DNA from: a virus
Taxonomy: Duplodnaviria > Heunggongvirae > Uroviricota > Caudoviricetes
Direction: 5' to 3' (one strand)
Virus record (IMG/VR): IMGVR_UViG_2851949629_000008
Location: 1 to 45,030 of that record
Length of the DNA stretch: 45,030 nucleotides
Notes under the pieces: generated by a model
Database searches by the model: none
What the model saw: the letters and a program-made list of their open reading frames with translations, nothing else
What the model was told of the DNA's origin: nothing
Position numbers and translations under genes: made by a program
Shown here: positions 1 through 40,500 of the stretch, piece by piece
How positions within the stretch are numbered: the first letter of the stretch is position 1
Layout of the letters: each line of letters begins with the position of its first letter

Positions 1-267
1 TTACTCTGCAGGTGAAGTCGGCCACTCAATATCAGGTGCGGTTGATGTATCAACACGGTTCAGCAACACCCGATACTTCTTCCAGGCTTCCAGCAACGAG
101 TTTTCTTCCTCCGTTGCGATCTCCAGATCTACAGCATCCTGAAGTGGCGCAATATGCTCACTGAATTCCTGGATGTAGAACTGTGTGGTGACGGTCTTCC
201 AGCCATTCGGCTCCTGCTGTATCGAAGCATACCAGGCTATTTCAATATCGCTATGCTGCGGCAGCAT
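1..267 (-). CDS. tfa: Tail fibre assembly protein (Tfa) C-terminal domain ORF, 88 aa, internal start
   Basis: Translation ends ...[27 protein letters not shown], matching the lambda/E. coli Tfa C-terminus as recalled; lacks the N-terminal half. Confidence 0.6.
16..70. repeat. Direct repeat copy 1 (tfa 3' end, ~55 bp)
   Basis: ggccactcaatatcaggtgcggttgatgtatcaacacggttcagcaacaccc recurs at 1066-1120 with 1 mismatch (g/a at the 24th base of the quoted string). Confidence 0.8.
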
Positions 268-1439: not shown

Positions 1440-3275
1440 TCAATAGCGGATTGTCCCTACATCCATTTCTGGCGAATCCACTAACCAGAAATTATCTGGC
1501 TTTACAGCCAGAATGATCCAGGCAGTGTTTGTTGTTGATGACCAGGAAGGCAGCACATCGTATGCCGGGTCATCGCAAGAATCACGATAACCGTACTCAT
1601 TAAAAAGTGGAGCCATTGCTGCCACAAGATTCACCGCATTCAGCTCATTACCCAGCTTGCGCTCAAAAAGTGCCACACCTGCCGTTCCTTCCACCCACAC
1701 GCCACGGCTGTGACCACTATAACCATAATCAGGGTGGTACGGTGTGTAACCCGTGGTTTCCCTCGTACCAAATAAAAAACGCCCCATATATTTTCGGCAC
1801 TTAGCCGCTTTCTCAGCATCAATATTGGCAACAAACAATCCGCCCCAGGAAGACTGATCCAGCGCCGCTGCGTTGTCATAGTGGGTTGAATGAACCCCCT
1901 GTCGAAATCGGCCTTCATCTTCCACCCACAGACCTCTGATGATGCTCTTTGCCAGCCTGTCAGCCCGCTCACTGAAACCGTCAAATCCCAGCCGTCCCAT
2001 CAGTTCAAACAAAAACCAGATATCAACGTTATGCTCCAGTGCGCACCATTCGGCGACAAAAGTTTCATCAAAATTGCCGTCCACATAACGCCCCTGCCCC
2101 CCTTTATACAGGCCTTCACGCAGGTCGCCTGGTGTGCTCACCAGAAAAGTATCCAGCCAGGCAATGCCTGCCAATAGCTTTTCTCTGACCCGCGCAGTCT
2201 GAGTACCGTCCGGATACTTCTCCAGATAGAAAGCAAGAGCATAATAAACCCATGCCGCATTGCCCAAGCGGTAATAGGTACGCGGTGACATGGCAGACAG
2301 CCTGTTAACAAAAAACTTTACTCCACCGTTTTCATCAACAAGCGCACACAAGCCCGCAACGTATCTTTCTACAGCCTCATGTCGCTGAACCATCAACGCC
2401 AGTGCTGCCAGCGCCTGGTCATACGTGTAACACCGATCTTTCATCACCCTGATCACTTCGGGGTCTGCGTCCTCCGGCATCCAGTAGCTACGAATGAGCA
2501 GTGGAAACTCCAGCGTTGTGATCCACGCATTATCCTCAATCCGAATAAGACGAAACTGTTTTGCTCCCGTCCAGCAACGTCTGAAATAGAAAGTTCCGTC
2601 ACTATTCAAATTAGCGTCGCCGTTAAAATACTCTCCGGTTGTATAAGCATACATATCGACTTTATACTTTTCAGGTTCAGGAATATCGCAATATCCGTTA
2701 ACTGCACCGACATAATTAAAATCGATATTTTCTTTTATTTTTAAAGATATTGATGTATTAACAACCTCGGGTTGTTCCAGTTTTAACATTGCAGTAGTGC
2801 AACGACTCACGATGTCGTCAAAGTTCTCAAAGCGCAAACCGGGAAAACTATCGGCTATTCCCTGCATTTCAGACAGTAACGCTTCTGCCCTTTTTGTCGC
2901 TGATATTGCCACATCTGCACTTCGTTGCGCCTGACTTGTCAAATCTTCAAATCGTTTCACCACATCTGGCTTCAGGTCGCCTTCGTCGGGGGCAGTCAGA
3001 AAATCATTCAGCGTACCTGGTCTGGAACCTTCATAAACGGTAATGGTCCCGGCATGTGAAGGCGGAAAACCTTCAACCAACAGGGTGACGCTGTATTGAC
3101 CATACTCAACATCCATGCTGTAACGTCCAGCTTCATCCGGATTTTCTGAGGCCACCGTGTTCACCACAACCGTTGTGCTGTTACGTTTTGCCTTCAGTTG
3201 AATAGTGCAGTTCTGTATTGGTTTTCCCGCACCATCTTTCAGCACACCTGAGATTTTTACTGCTGCCATATCCAC
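1440..3275 (-). CDS. stf: Side tail fibre protein, chimeric: lambda Stf-like N-terminus with a distinct C-terminal domain
   Basis: First ~90 aa (MAAVKISGVLKDGAGKPIQNCTIQLKAKRNSTTVVVNTV...) match the lambda Stf N-terminus as recalled; the remaining ~500 aa are unrelated to lambda Stf; position after lom. Confidence 0.8.
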   Translation of the reverse strand: MDMAAVKISGVLKDGAGKPIQNCTIQLKAKRNSTTVVVNTVASENPDEAGRYSMDVEYGQYSVTLLVEGFPPSHAGTITVYEGSRPGTLNDFLTAPDEGDLKPDVVKRFEDLTSQAQRSADVAISATKRAEALLSEMQGIADSFPGLRFENFDDIVSRCTTAMLKLEQPEVVNTSISLKIKENIDFNYVGAVNGYCDIPEPEKYKVDMYAYTTGEYFNGDANLNSDGTFYFRRCWTGAKQFRLIRIEDNAWITTLEFPLLIRSYWMPEDADPEVIRVMKDRCYTYDQALAALALMVQRHEAVERYVAGLCALVDENGGVKFFVNRLSAMSPRTYYRLGNAAWVYYALAFYLEKYPDGTQTARVREKLLAGIAWLDTFLVSTPGDLREGLYKGGQGRYVDGNFDETFVAEWCALEHNVDIWFLFELMGRLGFDGFSERADRLAKSIIRGLWVEDEGRFRQGVHSTHYDNAAALDQSSWGGLFVANIDAEKAAKCRKYMGRFLFGTRETTGYTPYHPDYGYSGHSRGVWVEGTAGVALFERKLGNELNAVNLVAAMAPLFNEYGYRDSCDDPAYDVLPSWSSTTNTAWIILAVKPDNFWLVDSPEMDVGTIRY

Positions 3276-3323
3276 CCCACAAAAAAGCCCGCCAGAATAT
3301 GCGGGCTGTCATAACACTGCTAA

Positions 3324-3923
3324 TCAGAATTTATAACCGACACCCACGATAAAACCGTCAGTGCGCCAGTCACCACTGCCGGAGCCTTCATAAGCAATAT
3401 CAATGGCCACGGATTCGGTCGGGTTAAACTGCACGCCAGCCCCCCACGCCAGAGACGTGTTACTGTGGCGACCATCATCACTTGCGGTCAGCACATCGTG
3501 CGTTTTCCCCTTGTTGTCAGTTACGCGGAGATAATCCCCGGAGAAAGTCGAAACACGGCTGTAAGCCACACCCGCCATCGCATATGCGCTGAACCACTCA
3601 TTCACGCGCACAGATGGCCCCGCCATCATGCTGAACCAGCGGTTACGCACGGAATCTTCATGCCAGCGGGTATCACTGTAACGGGTAATCTGGCGATTCT
3701 TGTCTCCGGAATAACTGAATGACGTCACCAGCCCCAGCGTGTCCGTAAATTCATAACGGTATTTCACGTTAATGCCCTTCAGGTCATCGTTGCCGGGCAT
3801 ATCAGTATGGGACTGAATATACCCGGAGCTTAGTGTGGACTGATGCTCTGCTGCACTCGCTGGCGTACCAGCGGCGACCAGCCAGACTACTGCAGACAGA
3901 ATAACAGCACATAATTTACGCAT
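3324..3923 (-). CDS. lom: Lom outer membrane protein (Ail/Lom family)
   Basis: [12 protein letters not shown]... signal peptide, beta-barrel-like C-terminus ending GYKF, located after J as in lambda. Confidence 0.9.
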
Positions 3924-3990
3924 AATTACCTCTCGCTTTTCTGCAATAAAAAAGGCGTCATTTCTGACGCCCGTATTGGGGTTATAAAAT

Positions 3991-16791: not shown

Positions 16792-18498
16792 TCAGATGAC
16801 GCCCCCCTCTTTCTGAACGCGCATCAACTGGCGGGCTTTATCCAGCGATGCCACGTCCATTGCAGCGCTCTCCAGTACGTTTGCATGTTTCGCTTTATCG
16901 AACAGACTTACATTATCTGTGGAGATTTTCGGGTTAGACGTCAGAATGGCATAAACCAGATCGGCAATAGTGGATTTCGCCGCACGGCCCAGTTTCATCG
17001 GGACATCGGTCAGCATATTCAGATCATCATTGATAATGGCCTGACGGGTGATACTGAACAGCTCGCCATAGGTCGCCAGTGCAATAGTGGCCTGTTTATC
17101 TCCGGTGGTGACGTATTTATATTCCGCCCCTTCACGCACCTGACGCAGAGCACTGAAGCCCCCCATACCCACACGATGGGCAATTTTAAAATCAGACAAC
17201 TGACCTTTCCGGGTCCACTGTTCGTAAGTCTCAGGGGCTTCTTCCCAGCCCTGCAGAATGGCTTTGTTCGCGACATCCAGCAGAATATTACCGAAATCAG
17301 ACGTACTGTGCGTGAACGCTGCCCCGACCATCTGCATCGGGTTATACCCGGAAACCCCAATCCCCCGTTCTGTCAGTGACATTCGGGCATATTCACGCAG
17401 GGTCATCCCGTTATAGACGTTATCCTGTTCACGCTCAGCAAATCCGGCACGCGCCATCAGCGCCTGACGGATCCCGTCCCCCACAAAATTACCGTTTCCA
17501 GCATAAATATGGGCCGGGGTATTTTTATTTGATGGTGAAAATTCCTTACCCATTTCGTTAAGTAATTTCTCACGGGCCTGCTCAAGCGAGCACTCCGGAT
17601 CGGAAAGACAACTGGCCTGCAATGTCTGATAACGCCCGCCAAACATGGCAAACAGATCATTAATACCGTTTACACGCGCTTTTTGCTCTGCCAGTACCTG
17701 CGCACGGATACTGCTTTCATCTGCGGAAGGTGCATTTGTGGTAGTCGCGGTTGTAGCAACTGGAGCCGTAGTCTGATCCTGTGTCTGAGATGCAGTATTT
17801 TTGTTTTCAGGTTCACGCGTTGCACTGTTGCGTGGCGGAATAATCATATTTCGAATGGATTCCGGCATTTTTTTAAATTCCTCTGTACGTTTTGACTGAA
17901 TACATGCCATTGCCTTAACTTCCGGTGTCACCTGGTCAGCAAATCCGTGTGCCAGACATTCGGCACCGGACATCCAGGTTTCATCCGCCAGCATGGCAGC
18001 AATTTCATCGGTGGTTTTCCCGGTTTTCTGCGCATAAGCAGGCAACAGAACCGACTCAACTTTATCAAGCAGGTCGGCATAATCACGCATATCATCCGCA
18101 TCGCCACCACTCACTCCCCATGGTTTATGGATCATCATGAATGCGTTTTCCGGCATGATGACGGGCTCACCCACCATTGCAATGACCGATGCCATGGATG
18201 CCGCGACACCATCCACATAAACAGTAATAGACGCCCCATGATTTTTCAGCGCATTAAAAATGGCGATACCTTCAAAGACATCGCCACCAGGTGAATTGAT
18301 ATGGAGATTAATGTGAGTGATATTACCCAGCGCATTCAGATCGCTAACAAACTGCTTCGCCGTAACTCCCCAGAAACCAATCTCGTCATAGATATAAATA
18401 TCTGCGTCACTTTTATGACCCGCCTTCATCCTGAACCAGGAATTATTCTTCAGACTGGCCTTCGGTTCGCCGCGAAACCACGCGTTCTGTTTCAGCAT
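16792..18498 (-). CDS. Prohead protease (ClpP/S14-like) fused to scaffold/major capsid region
   Basis: HINSPGGDVFEGIAIFNAL is ClpP-like; Ala/Thr-rich linker; capsid-like C-terminal half; strong RBS AAGGAGGTGGTAATG at the MLKQNAW start (18498). Confidence 0.7.
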   Translation of the reverse strand: MLKQNAWFRGEPKASLKNNSWFRMKAGHKSDADIYIYDEIGFWGVTAKQFVSDLNALGNITHINLHINSPGGDVFEGIAIFNALKNHGASITVYVDGVAASMASVIAMVGEPVIMPENAFMMIHKPWGVSGGDADDMRDYADLLDKVESVLLPAYAQKTGKTTDEIAAMLADETWMSGAECLAHGFADQVTPEVKAMACIQSKRTEEFKKMPESIRNMIIPPRNSATREPENKNTASQTQDQTTAPVATTATTTNAPSADESSIRAQVLAEQKARVNGINDLFAMFGGRYQTLQASCLSDPECSLEQAREKLLNEMGKEFSPSNKNTPAHIYAGNGNFVGDGIRQALMARAGFAEREQDNVYNGMTLREYARMSLTERGIGVSGYNPMQMVGAAFTHSTSDFGNILLDVANKAILQGWEEAPETYEQWTRKGQLSDFKIAHRVGMGGFSALRQVREGAEYKYVTTGDKQATIALATYGELFSITRQAIINDDLNMLTDVPMKLGRAAKSTIADLVYAILTSNPKISTDNVSLFDKAKHANVLESAAMDVASLDKARQLMRVQKEGGVI

Positions 18499-26176: not shown

Positions 26177-26251
<75 letters not shown>

Positions 26252-26254
26252 ATA

Positions 26255-26330
<76 letters not shown>

Positions 26331-26332
26331 AC

Positions 26333-26409
26333 TGGACCGCCACCGGGGACTCGAACCTCGCACACTCAACTTAAAGGGTTGACGCTCTTTCCTGATGAGC
26401 CAGTGGCGG
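26333..26409 (-). tRNA. tRNA-like gene, anticodon loop CCUUUAA (UUU, Lys-type; C33 is noncanonical)
   Basis: 77 nt, 7-bp acceptor stem, T-loop TTCGAGT, CCA end; one A-C mismatch in the T-stem. Confidence 0.4.
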
Positions 26410-26410
26410 T

Positions 26411-26486
26411 TGGTGGCCCTTGCTGGATTTGAACCAGCGACCTGGCGATTATGAGTCGCTCGCTCTCACCACTGAGCTAAAGGGCC
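26411..26486 (-). tRNA. tRNA with CAU anticodon (Ile2/ileX-like or Met)
   Basis: GGCCCTTTAGCTCAGTGG...CTCATAA...GGTTCAAATCC resembles E. coli ileX as recalled. Confidence 0.7.
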
Positions 26487-29843: not shown

Positions 29844-30197
29844 ATGAATAAAACAATTTGTTTTCTATTGGTTTTTGCAATTTCAGGATGCGTCAACCCT
29901 TATAACTACAGAGAAGAACAAAATGTTATTATCTCGTTCAAAACAAATTCTCCACCACAAGAAATACAAGAATGCATTCTCAGTGAGTGGCAGCGTACAC
30001 CTCTCTTAGCCACTATCACGTCTCAAAAAATTGGCAAGTATTACAGCGTATTAGCGGTTGCAGATAATGCCGACATTTATAAGTTGGCAGATGGTTCTAC
30101 TATCATTGATTTTTATTCCCTTCGAGGGGTCTTAGACCCCACCAATGGGAAAAGCAAGAGGATTCAGGGAATTAAATCATGTATTAGCACTAAATAA
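29844..30197 (+). CDS. Small lipoprotein, paralog of the 7453-7791 lipoprotein
   Basis: MNKTICFLLVFAISGC lipobox; shares N-terminus, a central E-x-x-C-I-x-x-x-W motif and C-terminal Cys with the other lipoprotein; AT-rich; terminator hairpin at 30271-30300. Confidence 0.6.
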   Translation: MNKTICFLLVFAISGCVNPYNYREEQNVIISFKTNSPPQEIQECILSEWQRTPLLATITSQKIGKYYSVLAVADNADIYKLADGSTIIDFYSLRGVLDPTNGKSKRIQGIKSCISTK

Positions 30198-30301
30198 TCA
30201 TCAGTTCGAACCCAGAAACAGCCAAATAGATTTTATCTCAGGTGCGTTGAGGATGCCTGACACATCAGAGGTGGCGAGGGATTTCTCCCTCGCCTGGTTT
30301 T

Positions 30302-30457
30302 TTACTTCTCAGATTCGTAGGCTACGAAGACAGCGACCTCCGTCTGGCCGGTTCGGATTCGTACCTCGCAGAGGTCTTTCCTCGTTACCAGTGCCGTCAC
30401 AATGACGGTTAAACAGATGACGATAAGGGCGATTAACATCGCCTTTTGCTGCTTCAT
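30302..30457 (-). CDS. hok: Hok-family type I toxin (51 aa)
   Basis: MKQQKAMLIALIVICLTVIVTALVTRKDLCEVRIRTGQTEVAVF... is near-identical to HokD/RelF as recalled. Confidence 0.85.
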   Translation of the reverse strand: MKQQKAMLIALIVICLTVIVTALVTRKDLCEVRIRTGQTEVAVFVAYESEK

Positions 30458-30557
30458 AGCCTGCTTCTCCTTGCCTTTCGGCACGTAAGAGGCTAATCTT
30501 CAGTTGTCGAGACATAAGACTGGCCTCACTTTGTACTGACCCCAAAAAGTTGGACAG

Positions 30558-31409
30558 TTAAACACGAGGCATATAGGTCTGATTCCGATATTCAATTGGA
30601 GTCAGACCTTTTAATTTCAGGCTAATTCTTCTGCTGTTGTAGTATTCAATATATTCCGTAACAGCATCCTTCAGTTCGCTTATATTACTGAACTCATCAA
30701 GATAAAAACACTCCGACTTTAAGGTTCCAAAGAAACACTCCACCACAGCATTATCCAGACAATTGCCTTTTCTGGACATGCTTTGTTTAATACCATGTTC
30801 TTTAAGGATATTTTGATATCTTCTCATACGATACTGCCATCCCTGGTCAGAGTGCAGAACAGGATGCTCGTGAGGATTAAGCTTTTTGAATGCCTGATCG
30901 AGCATATTCTCAACCATGTTCATCACTGGTCTTTCCGAAAGGCTGTAAGAAATAACTTCGTTGTTGAAGAGATCTATTACTGGAGACAAATACAGCTTGC
31001 GCCCATTGACTGCAAATTCAGTAACATCGGTAACCCACTTCTCGTTTGGCCGCGTAGCCTTGAAATCTCTTTGGAGAACATTAGGGGCGGTTTGCCCTAC
31101 CTCTCCTCTGTAAGAGCGGTATCGCTTGACCTTAATCGCTGCTTTAAGTGAGAGGGTTCCCATCAGGCGCTGAACAGCTTTATGGTTAATCTGTTTCCCT
31201 TCTCGATGAAGAGACAGCGTTACCCTACGGTATCCGTATCGGCCTCTATTCTCGTGATAAATCTCACTAATACGCTTTTTAACGTCCGCATACTTGTCAG
31301 GCTTGCTGAGAGCCTTTAGATGATAATAAAACGTACTGCGCGGTATCTCCGCAGCCCTGAGAAGCTCATCAAGAGGATAAAACTGCCTTAGCTCGTTGAG
31401 TACTTTCAC
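30558..31409 (-). CDS. insK: IS150 transposase OrfB (InsK, DDE)
   Basis: 283 aa IS3-family integrase-core ORF. Confidence 0.9.
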
Positions 31410-31927
31410 TTTTTCGTGGGATGAGCTAAGGCTTTCAGCTTTTTTAGATACATAAGCCGCGTTTCAAGAAATCGAACTTGCCTTTCAAGATCCTCAATGC
31501 GTCGGTCTTTTGACAGCTCCAATGCTGATGCCGCTTTTTCTGGATCAACTGATATTGCAATGTTTCTTTTGGTGCCAATCTTGAGCGCGCGTAAACCAGC
31601 TTCTCCGCGCTCTTCATAGACCTTCAGCCACCTGGCTACAGAACCACTACCAGCAAGCATAAAGTGAGCAGCAGCCTGATTAAGGGACATGTGCTGCTCG
31701 ATCACAGCTTTCACGACCTTAATACGCAACTCTGGATCAGCACTAACGCCTTTAGGTTTGGGAATTAAACCTTTTTCTCCATGTTTTTCATAGAGGGCAA
31801 CCCATGTCCTGACCTGGGTTCGGGGGACACCAAAACGTGCCGAGATGATCCTGTAACCATCATCAGTTGTGAAGTAGTGATTCACGACTTCAAGGCGCTT
31901 TTCAAAAGGGTATTTTGGCTTTGACAT
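31406..31927 (-). CDS. insJ: IS150 OrfA (InsJ, HTH)
   Basis: 173 aa; overlaps orfB. Confidence 0.9.
   Translation of the reverse strand: MSKPKYPFEKRLEVVNHYFTTDDGYRIISARFGVPRTQVRTWVALYEKHGEKGLIPKPKGVSADPELRIKVVKAVIEQHMSLNQAAAHFMLAGSGSVARWLKVYEERGEAGLRALKIGTKRNIAISVDPEKAASALELSKDRRIEDLERQVRFLETRLMYLKKLKALAHPTKK
31422..31428 (-). promoter_or_regulatory. IS150 -1 programmed frameshift heptamer AAAAAAG
   Basis: Minus-strand A AAA AAG at the orfA/orfB overlap, as expected for IS3-family transframe transposase. Confidence 0.6.
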
Positions 31928-32236
31928 ATTAGGGGCTATTCCATTTCATCGTCCAACAAAATGGGTGCAGTACACTTCGATTTATAGTCGGGTGGGGCTT
32001 TTCTCTATCTGCCTTTTGGTGTTCATGCCTGAGACAGATAGCCTCAAGCACCCGCAGCAATTCTACTTATGACGCAATTTAATGACAACAACTCTACAGC
32101 GGTAGTGTGTTTAACTATTGACATTGATTAACTCATTATTCAAAATTTTTGCGTACGCATTAATGATTTTGTGTCGTTGTTGTGATGGTAAAAAAATCAC
32201 AAACGATCTAACAATAACATAGGTGATATTTTCAAT

Positions 32237-33377
32237 ATGGAAATTAAGCAAGTTATCGTTCATGAACTAATTAAAGAAGCAAAAAAGGATTTTGATTTTT
32301 CTAAGCCGTATCAGCTTAGATCCACTCCTCTCGATAAAACCAATCCAATTGTTATAAAACTTATTCAAGACATTTCATCTTTATATGGAACCAAAGGCAA
32401 TTCTGCACATTATGGCGTTTTTAAAGAGGAGAAAACAGAACAAGGGCCTGTGCCATCAATATTTGAAGAGTATTCTCAGTCAGAGGATAACATTAATGAA
32501 AAGTTTGTGCCTTTTTCTATTGAAGTGATGAAGCAACTTGTAAAAAAAGCCAAAGAAGAACCTTGGTCATCTGGTGGTTTTATTGTGTTTTGTGACTATA
32601 TTGTAAATAACAATAAATTCTTTTTAATTGCAATGATTAAAAAGAAAAATGGTGTTACTATCAGCAACAAACTCGAACCTGAAGAAATGATCCATTTGGA
32701 TCTATCCAAAATACACCAAGCAGCAAGAATAAATTTCAATCTCTACCAACAATATAAAACTGCTGATGAGTCTGAAAAAATTGACTTAAGTTATCTAAGT
32801 TTCGTAAGTAAAGGAGTGGGTCAATCCACATCAGCATATTTTATTGCAGCAATAGGATGCGACAAATCACTTGCAGCAGCAAAAGCCACAAAAACTACCA
32901 ACTGTCGCAAAACAATTTTTTAACCAAAAACCAGAACTTAAAGCATGTGCCAATAGATTTAAACATGACGTTATTGCATATTTAGACACACAAGCAGCTA
33001 AAAATTTGTCAGCCCGATTGAGTGATATTGAAGTAATTGCAGCACGTCACATGACAAATTTAGATGAGTCTACCAAAGAATCTTACACTCACGAATTAAT
33101 TCTTTTTTTAAATAGTGAAAATGTGAGAATCCCAACTGAATTTGTTATCAGTAAACGGGCGTTGAAAGACATTAAAAACATCACCTTTAAGACTGATGAG
33201 ATTGGATTTAATTTTGACAAGTCTCTCCTTGGAGTGACAGCTGATGATGATGTGTGGTACGATGAAACAACTGGAAGATTATCATTTACAAACTTACCAG
33301 CTGAATTTAAGGCTAAACTAAGCGCTGTGGTAAAAGAAAATTTAAAAATAAGGGATAGTGGAAAAGAAAATGGCTAA
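32237..33377 (+). CDS. NdpA/YejK-like (NA37 family) nucleoid-associated protein homolog, interrupted by an apparent +1 frameshift near 32889-32893
   Basis: N-terminus MEIKQVIVHELIK and GGFIVFCDYIV align with E. coli YejK as recalled (INQIALHQLIK, GGFVLFCHYRY); track splits it into 32237-32923 and 32871-33377 (the latter with a TTG start); AT-rich. Confidence 0.55.
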
Positions 33378-40151: not shown

Positions 40152-40500
40152 GGGTCAGGTGGAGTGCGTGCGCCGGACACGGGTGAACATCCGGCACTGA
40201 CAGTTTACTGAAAGGATATGTCCCTGAAAAGTCAGGGCATAACGCGAAAGCGCACGGCGAAATTGGTCTCTCTGTACGGTGTCGTTAAATTTAGTTCGAC
40301 CGTGCGCTTCCGGTTGTGGCAATCCGCGAAATGGCGCGGCGGTAAGTATGGCGGGGTTATTCCTTCCCCGTTGAGGACACCGGGTTGTCAGGTTGACCAT
40401 ACGCTTAAGTGACAACCCCGCTGCAACGCCCTCTGTTATCAATTTTCTGGTGACGTTTGGCGGTATCAGTTTTACTCCGTGACTGCTCTGCCGCCGTTTT
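40152..40500 (+). ncRNA. Candidate structured noncoding RNA region (GC-rich, multiple hairpins)
   Basis: Stems CCCTGA/TCAGGG, CCGCG/CGCGG, GGGTTGTCA/TGACAACCC, GGCGG/CCGCC followed by GTTTTTAAAG; ORFs here are Arg-rich and implausible; strand is uncertain. Confidence 0.3.

Follow-up and report, generated by a model that had tools for sequence, protein, structure and literature searches.

An IS150 insertion splits the hok/sok leader of an E. coli lambdoid prophage at a recurrent, hairpin-associated site

Introduction

Two IS3-family elements of the IS150 group, IS1397 and ISKpn1, insert into REP/BIME palindromic units. For IS150 itself, the searchable literature contains a general statement that the element has an insertion preference (PMC10379815) and no target consensus beyond it; the hotspots themselves are published, and a unified hairpin motif with a mechanism for IS150 was not found there. 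Several of these hotspots concern hok/sok type I toxin-antitoxin loci. The trg/mokB region is an IS150 hotspot in mutation-accumulation lines, where it received 10 of the 50 IS150-mediated mutations (PMC5289635). In the long-term evolution experiment, mokB was hit by parallel IS insertions (PMC4301190, PMC3576414), which were fixed in half of the populations (PMC4301190). Insertion of IS150 at hokC/nhaA, at position 16,972 of REL606, was described in three lineages (PMC5419217). Furthermore, sokE::IS150 is present in more than 400 isolates and has a measurable phenotype, and sokA is disrupted in MG1655 (PMC11551753). Given this phenotype, IS150-split alleles are not necessarily neutral. Insertion hotspots of mobile elements occur near hok/sok homologues in both E. 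coli and Klebsiella (10.1101/527788).

Here we analyzed a stretch of viral DNA of 45,030 nucleotides (IMG/VR record IMGVR_UViG_2851949629_000008), referred to as the window, in which a sequence-only reading had noticed IS150 next to a hok toxin gene. We describe what the insertion left of the locus, how often such insertions occur, and which target they have in common.

Results

A prophage-borne hok/sok locus is interrupted by IS150

The window corresponds to an E. coli lambdoid prophage, with tail-fibre assembly genes at the left end, integrase and excisionase genes at the right end, and tRNAs, DicF, Q, RusA, DUF968, and ParDE between them. The hok/sok locus is located in the nin region, between the ParDE module and the Q antiterminator gene. 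It extends over approximately 30241-32088 and is thus wider than the range 30271-31977 originally assigned to it, which leaves out both the hok promoter and fbi. The features of the locus are listed in Table 1.

Table 1. Features of the interrupted hok/sok locus in the window
Feature	Position	Strand	Description
fbi element	30241-30252	minus	CCUCAACGCACC; 3' of hok, retained; complementary to the 5' tac end; located by sequence reading
hok toxin ORF	30302-30457	minus	51 aa, MKQQKAMLIALIVICLTVIVTALVTRKDLCEVRIRTGQTEVAVFVAYESEK; HokD/HokC type, intact
mok ORF	30309-30515	minus	68 codons, intact; ATG at 30515; overlaps hok in another frame; weak DUF5431 match
Downstream leader kept beside hok	30458-30531	minus	mok ribosome-binding site, mok ATG, Sok-target hairpin; RF01794 model positions 84-157
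Predicted sok promoter	30471-30499	plus	-35 TTGCCT (30471-76), 17-nt spacer, -10 TAATCT (30494-99); kept on the hok side
Sok 5' fragment	30506-30531	plus	26 nt, continues into the IS150 IRR; Sok +1 at 30506, 7 nt past the predicted promoter
mok ribosome-binding site	30527-30524	minus	GAGG; 4 nt from the IS150 end; sequence reading
Target-site duplication, copy 1	30529-30531		CTT on the plus strand
IS150	30532-31974	minus	1443 bp; IRR at 30532 toward hok, IRL at 31974 toward the hok promoter
IS150 orfB (insK)	31409-30558	minus	283 aa; ORF list
IS150 orfA (insJ)	31927-31406	minus	173 aa; ORF list
Target-site duplication, copy 2	31975-31977		CTT on the plus strand (AAG in hok sense)
Upstream hok mRNA leader, nt +1 to +79	31975-32053	minus	5' tac end GGGUGCUUGAGG, leader hairpins 1 and 2; RF01794 model positions 1-84
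Sok 3' fragment	31978-32021	plus	second Sok stem arm and terminator-like T-run, severed from the sok promoter
hok promoter	32060-32088	minus	-35 TTGTCA (32088-32083), 17-nt spacer, -10 TAGAAT (32065-32060); 10/12 matches in the consensus scan

The toxin ORF matches the Pfam family PF01848 HOK_GEF (81 bits, E = 3.9e-23) and is near-identical to annotated hokD genes in two prophages with an uninterrupted locus, those of E. coli 602354 (L004) and JE86-ST02 (L005). Alignment of the flanks to intact hok/sok loci, the check suggested by the sequence-only reading, placed the insertion relative to mok and sok. With nt +1 of the hok mRNA at about 32053, IS150 was inserted at approximately nt +79 of the leader, just upstream of the mok ribosome-binding site. 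The distance between the IS150 end and the hok ATG is 74 nt, and the toxin ORF itself is uninterrupted. These results bear out the initial placement of IS150 in the mok/sok region of the hok mRNA leader, about 75 bp upstream of the toxin ORF. In line with this, the Rfam leader model RF01794, which scores 122 bits on the empty site of 602354, was recovered from the window in two pieces scoring 82.6 and 45.4 bits, located on either side of IS150 and split at model position 84/85. The upstream piece spans 32053-31975 and the downstream piece 30531-30452.

On the far side of IS150, the upstream leader part is identical in sequence to the empty site of 602354, its last 3 nt representing one copy of the target duplication. 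The hok promoter is also found in the empty-site locus and is located 7 nt upstream of Rfam model position 1 (32053). IS150 now places 1443 bp between mok/hok and the features of the far side, namely the promoter, the 5' tac, the pair of leader hairpins, and the stem/terminator at the Sok 3' end, as expected from the earlier claim that hok was probably severed from its promoter. On the other side, the toxin gene is still accompanied by fbi at its 3' end, by the ribosome-binding site and ORF of mok, and by the predicted sok promoter with the initial 26 nt of Sok. Between IS150 and hok, only mok and its ribosome-binding site were found, not an intact set of promoter, mok, and sok. The mok start is homologous to R1-type mok starts in metagenome flanks. 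A duplex calculation for the 5' end and the 3' region yielded -22.2 kcal/mol for the pairing of tac with fbi, between which IS150 is located in the window. Past fbi, the window and the JE86-ST02 prophage have a 3' flank without the terminator hairpin present in 602354.

We scanned the minus strand for transcription signals. No terminator-like site was detected between the hok promoter and hok, IS150 included, and the consensus scan revealed no promoter-like site between IS150 orfB and hok. A hybrid outward promoter reaching from IRR into mok/hok was rejected on the basis of the latter scan.

The antisense gene is split, and its promoter-proximal part is kept

The sok gene was placed from the annotated K-12 sokC, whose 5' end corresponds to RF01794 model position 106 and whose 3' end corresponds to approximately position 44. 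The hexamers of the predicted sok promoter are weak and the site was not called by the consensus scan, its placement following from the sokC 5' end. In 602354, sok is contiguous from promoter to terminator; in the window, it is split. The Sok 3' fragment is homologous to the annotated K-12 sokC and sokA and contains a terminator-like hairpin (31989-32011) followed by CCTTTTGG, so that the 3' stem/terminator spans 31989-32021. The uninterrupted Sok was folded as well.

The initial claim that hok had lost its antisense control stands in part. Although sok is split and its stem/terminator displaced, hok retains beside it the predicted sok promoter and 26 nt from the Sok 5' end, which cover the mok start; antisense control thus appears truncated rather than wholly removed. 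A transcript initiated at sok would meet a hairpin in IS150 (30575-30609; 15-bp stem and U-run), and a chimeric Sok'-IS150 RNA of approximately 105 nt may end there. The predicted chimera folds with a strong terminal hairpin and U-run (z = -5.1).

The IS150 copy is intact and flanked by a target-site duplication

As had been noted from the letters, the element comprises 1443 bp with imperfect terminal repeats and CTT at both flanks. The terminal arms (30532-30562 and 31944-31974) are 31 nt long, are 71% complementary, and have a TGTACTG-type start. The two IS3-type ORFs overlap at 31406-31409 and are joined by a -1 frameshift. IS150 has the same orientation as hok. On the plus strand, the left junction reads GACTGGCCTCA-CTT followed by TGTACTGACCCC, and the right junction reads GGGTGCAGTACA followed by CTT-CGATTTATAG. 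When the window element was compared with the annotated K-12 IS150, all 1443 of 1443 positions were identical (0 mismatches), and so were insJ and insK. The insertion is probably recent, since this copy has not diverged from that of K-12.

An empty site was sought in other strains and found in the prophage of E. coli 602354. The locus there continues across the junction without interruption and has a single AAG; on the right flank, this prophage is 99.8% identical to the window. Because this empty site has only one CTT/AAG, the CTT repeat in the window reads as a true target-site duplication. The uninterrupted locus of the JE86-ST02 prophage has the left flank in common with the window (ParDE, a small ORF, and hok). 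The particular insertion of the window was found in 0 of 5426 complete E. coli genomes; the best hits, at 82% query coverage, correspond to hokC::IS150 or to an unrelated composite hit (H1). A target resembling the IS150 inverted repeat, as in IS911, was considered by comparing both flanks by eye with IRL and IRR in both orientations, and nothing convincing was seen.

IS150 recurs at the same leader position in hok paralogs

Junctions of IS150 with hok-type leaders are compiled in Table 2. In all of them, IRL is directed toward the hok promoter and IRR toward hok, and the leader position is the same. Plasmid hok loci also carry IS150 at this position and in this orientation, and E. coli 300709 harbors the element simultaneously in hokB, hokC, and hokE.

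Table 2. Junctions of IS150 with hok-type leaders, written in hok sense with the duplication in brackets
Locus	Junction	Remark
Window	AAATCG[AAG]-IS-[AAG]TGAGGCC	
hokA, non-K-12 strains	AAATCA[AAG]-IS-[AAG]TGAGGCT	
hokC, allele 1	[AACC]GAGGCC	
hokC, allele 2	[ACC]CGAGGCC	
hokC, allele 3	[AAC]CCGAGGCC	
hokB	[AAC]CGAGGCC	
hokE	[CCC]TGGGGCT	
sok-like (sokX-like) remnant between cysH and cas3	[ACC]TGAGGCT	no hok gene annotated
[Erwinia] mediterraneensis	[ACC]TGAGGCA	

To count such junctions, the 79 nt of the window's leader were joined to 120 nt of IRL, and matches over at least 80% of the query length were scored. At least 1126 of the 5426 complete E. coli genomes contain this leader-IRL junction, where counts for different loci overlap because paralogous hok leaders are alike. 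Altogether, 5907 copies of the IS150 IRL were present in 2847 of these genomes. We also constructed in silico the junctions expected if IS150 entered the uninterrupted leaders of K-12 hokE and hokB. Both matched natural genomes over the full length with 99.5% identity; the prediction of insertion at the same position was thus tested and held. Among the GTDB species representatives, the exact junction of the window had 0 matches, and a degenerate leader-IRL pattern was found in Superficieibacter, in [Erwinia] mediterraneensis, and in a probable E. coli contaminant contig.

The published position 16,972 of REL606 (PMC5419217) mapped to the same GGTT site as in natural isolates. Only this hokC/nhaA coordinate was used from the published table, in which the coordinates for hokE and mokB fall off those genes in REL606. 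The sequence-only reading had further invoked IS insertions in several chromosomal hok loci of K-12. This precedent applies to hokA/sokA, which is annotated as split by IS150 (PMC11551753), whereas the element near hokC and hokE is IS186 and is located downstream of the toxin gene. The window insertion is an ordinary instance of a documented event, the splitting of a hok/sok leader by IS150, here in a prophage-borne locus of the hokD type.

Insertion sites share a GRGGC pentamer and a hairpin

IRR-side flanks were pooled from the window, E. coli loci, IMG/VR contigs, and 120 metagenome contigs, yielding 70 distinct flanks. The pentamer G[AG]GGC was located exactly 5 nt past the IS end, that is, after the 3-bp duplication and one base, in 42 of the 70, and GRGGC was found at 6-7 nt in 8 further flanks (background frequency, 0.0015 per position). 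A regular expression assigned 30 of the 70 flanks to hok-family leaders; it overlooked several (four hokC and two other hok-related flanks), and with the missed ones added, roughly half of the flanks are of this family, R1/F-type plasmid loci among them. The same pentamer was present in clearly non-hok flanks (L041, L044, L046/L114, L053, L058, and others). For sites with both flanks available, reconstruction of the empty site usually gave a hairpin of the form AAAGCCCC-loop-GRGGCT, which the IS had entered immediately before the 3' arm. IS150 thus appears to prefer insertion 1 nt upstream of GRGGC, a pentamer that is usually the 3' arm of a GCCCC...GRGGC hairpin. Every hok leader contains such a hairpin, which there forms the Sok stem/terminator beside the mok ribosome-binding site. 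The pentamer alone is insufficient for site choice, since the window contains 38 YGRGGCY sites.

A scan with 24 nt of IRR additionally led to AT-rich viral contigs carrying a relative of IS150 that is approximately 65% identical and has a 25-nt IRR tip in common with it. This relative sits before stem-plus-T-run sequences, which suggests that the insertion preference is old.

Discussion

We consider it highly probable that a lambdoid prophage of E. coli recently received an intact IS150 by transposition into its hokD-type hok/sok locus, a type I toxin-antitoxin module. The DNA at the target specifies the hok mRNA leader on one strand and the antisense Sok RNA on the other. The site appears to be non-random, 1 nt upstream of the GRGGC that forms the 3' arm of the hairpin corresponding to the Sok stem/terminator. 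The sequence shows that the hok promoter, the 5' tac, and two leader hairpins are displaced by 1443 bp and that sok is cut after 26 nt and has lost its stem and terminator, with mok, hok, and fbi left intact. Judging from this structure, normal hok mRNA and Sok RNA would no longer be made, and expression would be low-level at most, by read-through transcription. Because neither of the two normal RNAs should be produced, the module has most likely lost its capacity for post-segregational killing.

More tentatively, and at somewhat less than even confidence, we propose that IS150, and apparently also distant relatives of the IS150 group, is a hairpin-targeting element. Its site would be AAAGCCCC-loop-[3-bp duplication]-N-GRGGCY, used in one orientation and built into every hok/sok leader. 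Chromosomal, prophage, and plasmid hok/sok loci would then act as IS150 traps, and their recurrent "inactivation" would chiefly be a side effect of where IS150 prefers to insert, and not an adaptive loss. This account of the hotspot is the most interesting result to take further.

The recurrence could instead be due mainly to selection for loss of the toxin-antitoxin locus and not to target preference. An adaptive role was proposed by the authors of two studies (PMC5419217; 10.1101/527788), and the long-term evolution experiment, where mokB insertions were fixed in half of the populations (PMC4301190), is compatible with it. However, the same hotspot was observed in mutation-accumulation lines, which evolve under minimal selection (trg/mokB accounted for 10 of the 50 IS150-mediated mutations; PMC5289635). 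Moreover, the sok-like remnant between cysH and cas3 was struck at the same position with no hok gene annotated, the position is conserved to the nucleotide and in orientation across paralogs and genera, and non-hok sites show the same GRGGC and hairpin motif. Selection as the main cause is therefore unlikely, and the target motif argues that insertion bias outweighs selection in the parallel IS150 insertions in hok loci. In evolution experiments, such parallel insertions should be taken as no evidence of selection unless a strong target bias is corrected for.

Another possibility is that the locus has been rewired rather than killed. As no minus-strand terminator was detected on the way from the hok promoter to hok, transcripts that start at the transposase promoter or at the displaced hok promoter could run on into mok/hok. 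If the Sok'-IS150 chimera (26 nt of Sok and approximately 80 nt of IS150, up to the hairpin at 30575-30609) still repressed, a functional or partly functional toxin-antitoxin system would result. The intact mok ribosome-binding site, mok ORF, hok, and fbi are consistent with this scenario, as are the retained sok promoter prediction, the strong terminal hairpin and U-run of the chimera (z = -5.1), and the measurable phenotype of sokE::IS150 (PMC11551753). On the other hand, no promoter-like site directed toward hok was detected between orfB and hok, and tac and the upstream hairpins, which control hok mRNA folding, are now 1.4 kb away. Pedersen and Gerdes reportedly found in 1999 that plasmids are stabilised by the hokA of E. 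coli B, which is free of IS150, but not by the K-12 loci. In addition, IS150 insertions in hok loci were repeatedly fixed without apparent toxicity (PMC4301190). Taken together, we regard a rewired, still functional module as quite improbable.

Least probable of all is that this IS150 copy did not transpose but came from another hok::IS150 locus, such as hokA::IS150, through homologous recombination or gene conversion: the AAG duplication and the almost identical upstream leader that hokA::IS150 of non-K-12 strains (L011, L012) shares with the window, chimeric junctions with flanks from two hok paralogs (L103, L134, L153, L154), and an IMG/VR contig (L028) with the same junction and a different 3' flank point in this direction, but the single-nucleotide differences in the flanks make it unlikely, as both window flanks match 602354 up to the duplication, including positions at which hokA differs (G at -4, C at +9), homology to hokA downstream of the IS is limited to about 9 nt, and a clean 3-bp duplication is present.

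Under the preferred reading of a recent, direct transposition, the window adds one more IS150-disrupted hok/sok locus, here on a lambdoid prophage, with a toxin module that is probably disabled; by itself, it carries little wider weight. For annotation, the presence of IS150 beside hok should be taken to mean that the sok/hok leader is split. Genomes in which several hok paralogs carry IS150 contain ready substrates for inversions and deletions and thus for chromosomal rearrangement.

Comparison with known systems

Plasmid R1 hok/sok and the window locus are alike in the Hok ORF, the overlapping mok, the tac/fbi complementarity, the position of Sok over the mok start, and the RF01794 leader. 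They differ in that the window locus is interrupted.

The closest annotated counterpart is K-12 hokA/sokA::IS150 (b4455, b4614, b4647), where sokA and mokA are annotated as pseudogenes split by IS150. The IS is 100% identical, the upstream junction agrees within 2 nt, sok is likewise divided, with one part next to its promoter and a remnant farther away, and the toxin ORF is unaffected. In contrast to the window, the K-12 IS is inverted relative to hok, a target duplication is lacking, and approximately 40 nt, among them the ribosome-binding site and start of mok, are missing; the K-12 copy is thus secondarily rearranged. The window copy is a clean insertion, like hokA::IS150 of the non-K-12 strains and unlike that of K-12. 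It further differs from K-12 hokA in being prophage-borne and of the hokD/hokC type.

The hotspots in hokB (trg/mokB), hokC (hokC/nhaA), and sokE resemble the window in the element, its location 0-2 nt upstream of GRGGC, its orientation, and the 3-4 bp duplications. These loci are chromosomal paralogs, whereas the window locus belongs to the nin region of a lambdoid prophage.

Like IS150, IS1397 and ISKpn1 insert into palindromes that can form hairpins, with both position and orientation fixed. Their targets are REP units, whereas the target of IS150 is the GCCCC...GRGGC hairpin, found in the Sok stem or in terminator-like sequences.

A strong target consensus of IS150 inside and outside hok loci

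IS150 flanks were collected from the window, E. coli loci (L001-L025), IMG/VR contigs (L026-L045), and metagenome contigs (L046-L165). The 70 flanks revealed a strong target consensus on the side of IRR, the end facing hok: the 3-bp duplication is followed by one base and then GRGGC(Y). At most sites, the motif makes up the 3' arm in a GCCCC...GRGGC hairpin. The same consensus was found at IS150 sites outside hok loci.

Hok/sok of the R1 plasmid type was also entered by IS150 away from the usual point, as detected in two metagenome contigs (L049 and L095). One of these insertions interrupts the leader-hairpin loop and precedes the usual site by approximately 12 nt. The other lies at the extreme 5' end of hok mRNA (CGCT^TGAGGCT), where GAGGC again occurs soon after the duplication. 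In E. coli 23CRST025, a copy between cysH and cas3 is flanked by an ACC duplication and occupies the usual leader position; its target is a degenerate hok/sok-like remnant adjoining cas3, without an annotated hok gene.

Rearrangement, recombination, and loss of IS150 copies

The IS150 copy at hokA of E. coli K-12 is inverted compared with the arrangement in other strains, has no target duplication, and is accompanied by the loss of approximately 40 nt, including the mok ribosome-binding site and start. Together, these features mark the K-12 copy as a secondarily rearranged form of the hokA::IS150 allele that is common. In four metagenome contigs (L103, L134, L153, and L154), IS150 also has no target duplication, and its two flanks originate from different hok paralogs (for example, hokA upstream and hokB downstream). 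Such copies imply recombination between IS150 copies residing in different hok loci.

At the prophage hok locus of two IMG/VR contigs (L037 and L043), the final 45 bp are all that remains of IS150. This remnant is joined to approximately nucleotide 19 of the leader and is then followed by AAGTGAGGCC. A deletion has reconnected the hok promoter to mok/hok via the IS scar.

Hok transcript 3' terminus and neighboring prophage features

In the empty-site prophage of E. coli 602354 (L004), a terminator hairpin (AACCCGCTTCGGCGGGTT) with a T-run is located 3' of fbi. The corresponding region of the window lacks this hairpin and T-run, as does the uninterrupted locus of the JE86-ST02 prophage. A prophage mosaic breakpoint coincides with the 3' terminus of the hok transcript.

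The gene that adjoins the hok promoter encodes a nucleoid-associated protein of 37 kDa (Pfam NA37). This gene is intact in E. coli 602354 (381 aa) and broken into two ORFs in the window, because a 2-nt deletion at approximately position 32889 shortened an A-run from A7 to A5. Further Rfam matches in the prophage are listed in the table.

Coordinates of the described features
Feature	Sequence	Position	Remark
IS009 RNA	Window	41-244	Rfam match, left end
Four tRNA genes	Window	26180-26486	Rfam match, upstream of lysis region
Region downstream of fbi	Window	30197-30260	
NA37 gene	Window	32237-33377	
DicF antisense RNA	Window	40445-40496	Rfam match
Region compared downstream of fbi	L004	4688-4705	
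IS150 at hokA	L006 (K-12)	1134-2576	
IS150, cysH-cas3	L016 (23CRST025)	2539-3981	
IS150 remnant	L037	5996-6040	
IS150 remnant	L043	8009-8053	

An apparently distant IS150 relative in AT-rich viral contigs

AT-rich viral contigs from IMG/VR (26-36% GC; L026, L029, L032-L035, L038-L040, and L042) carry an IS only ~65% identical to IS150, with a 25-nt IRR tip exactly as in IS150. This element immediately precedes short stems followed by T-runs, sequences that look like intrinsic terminators.
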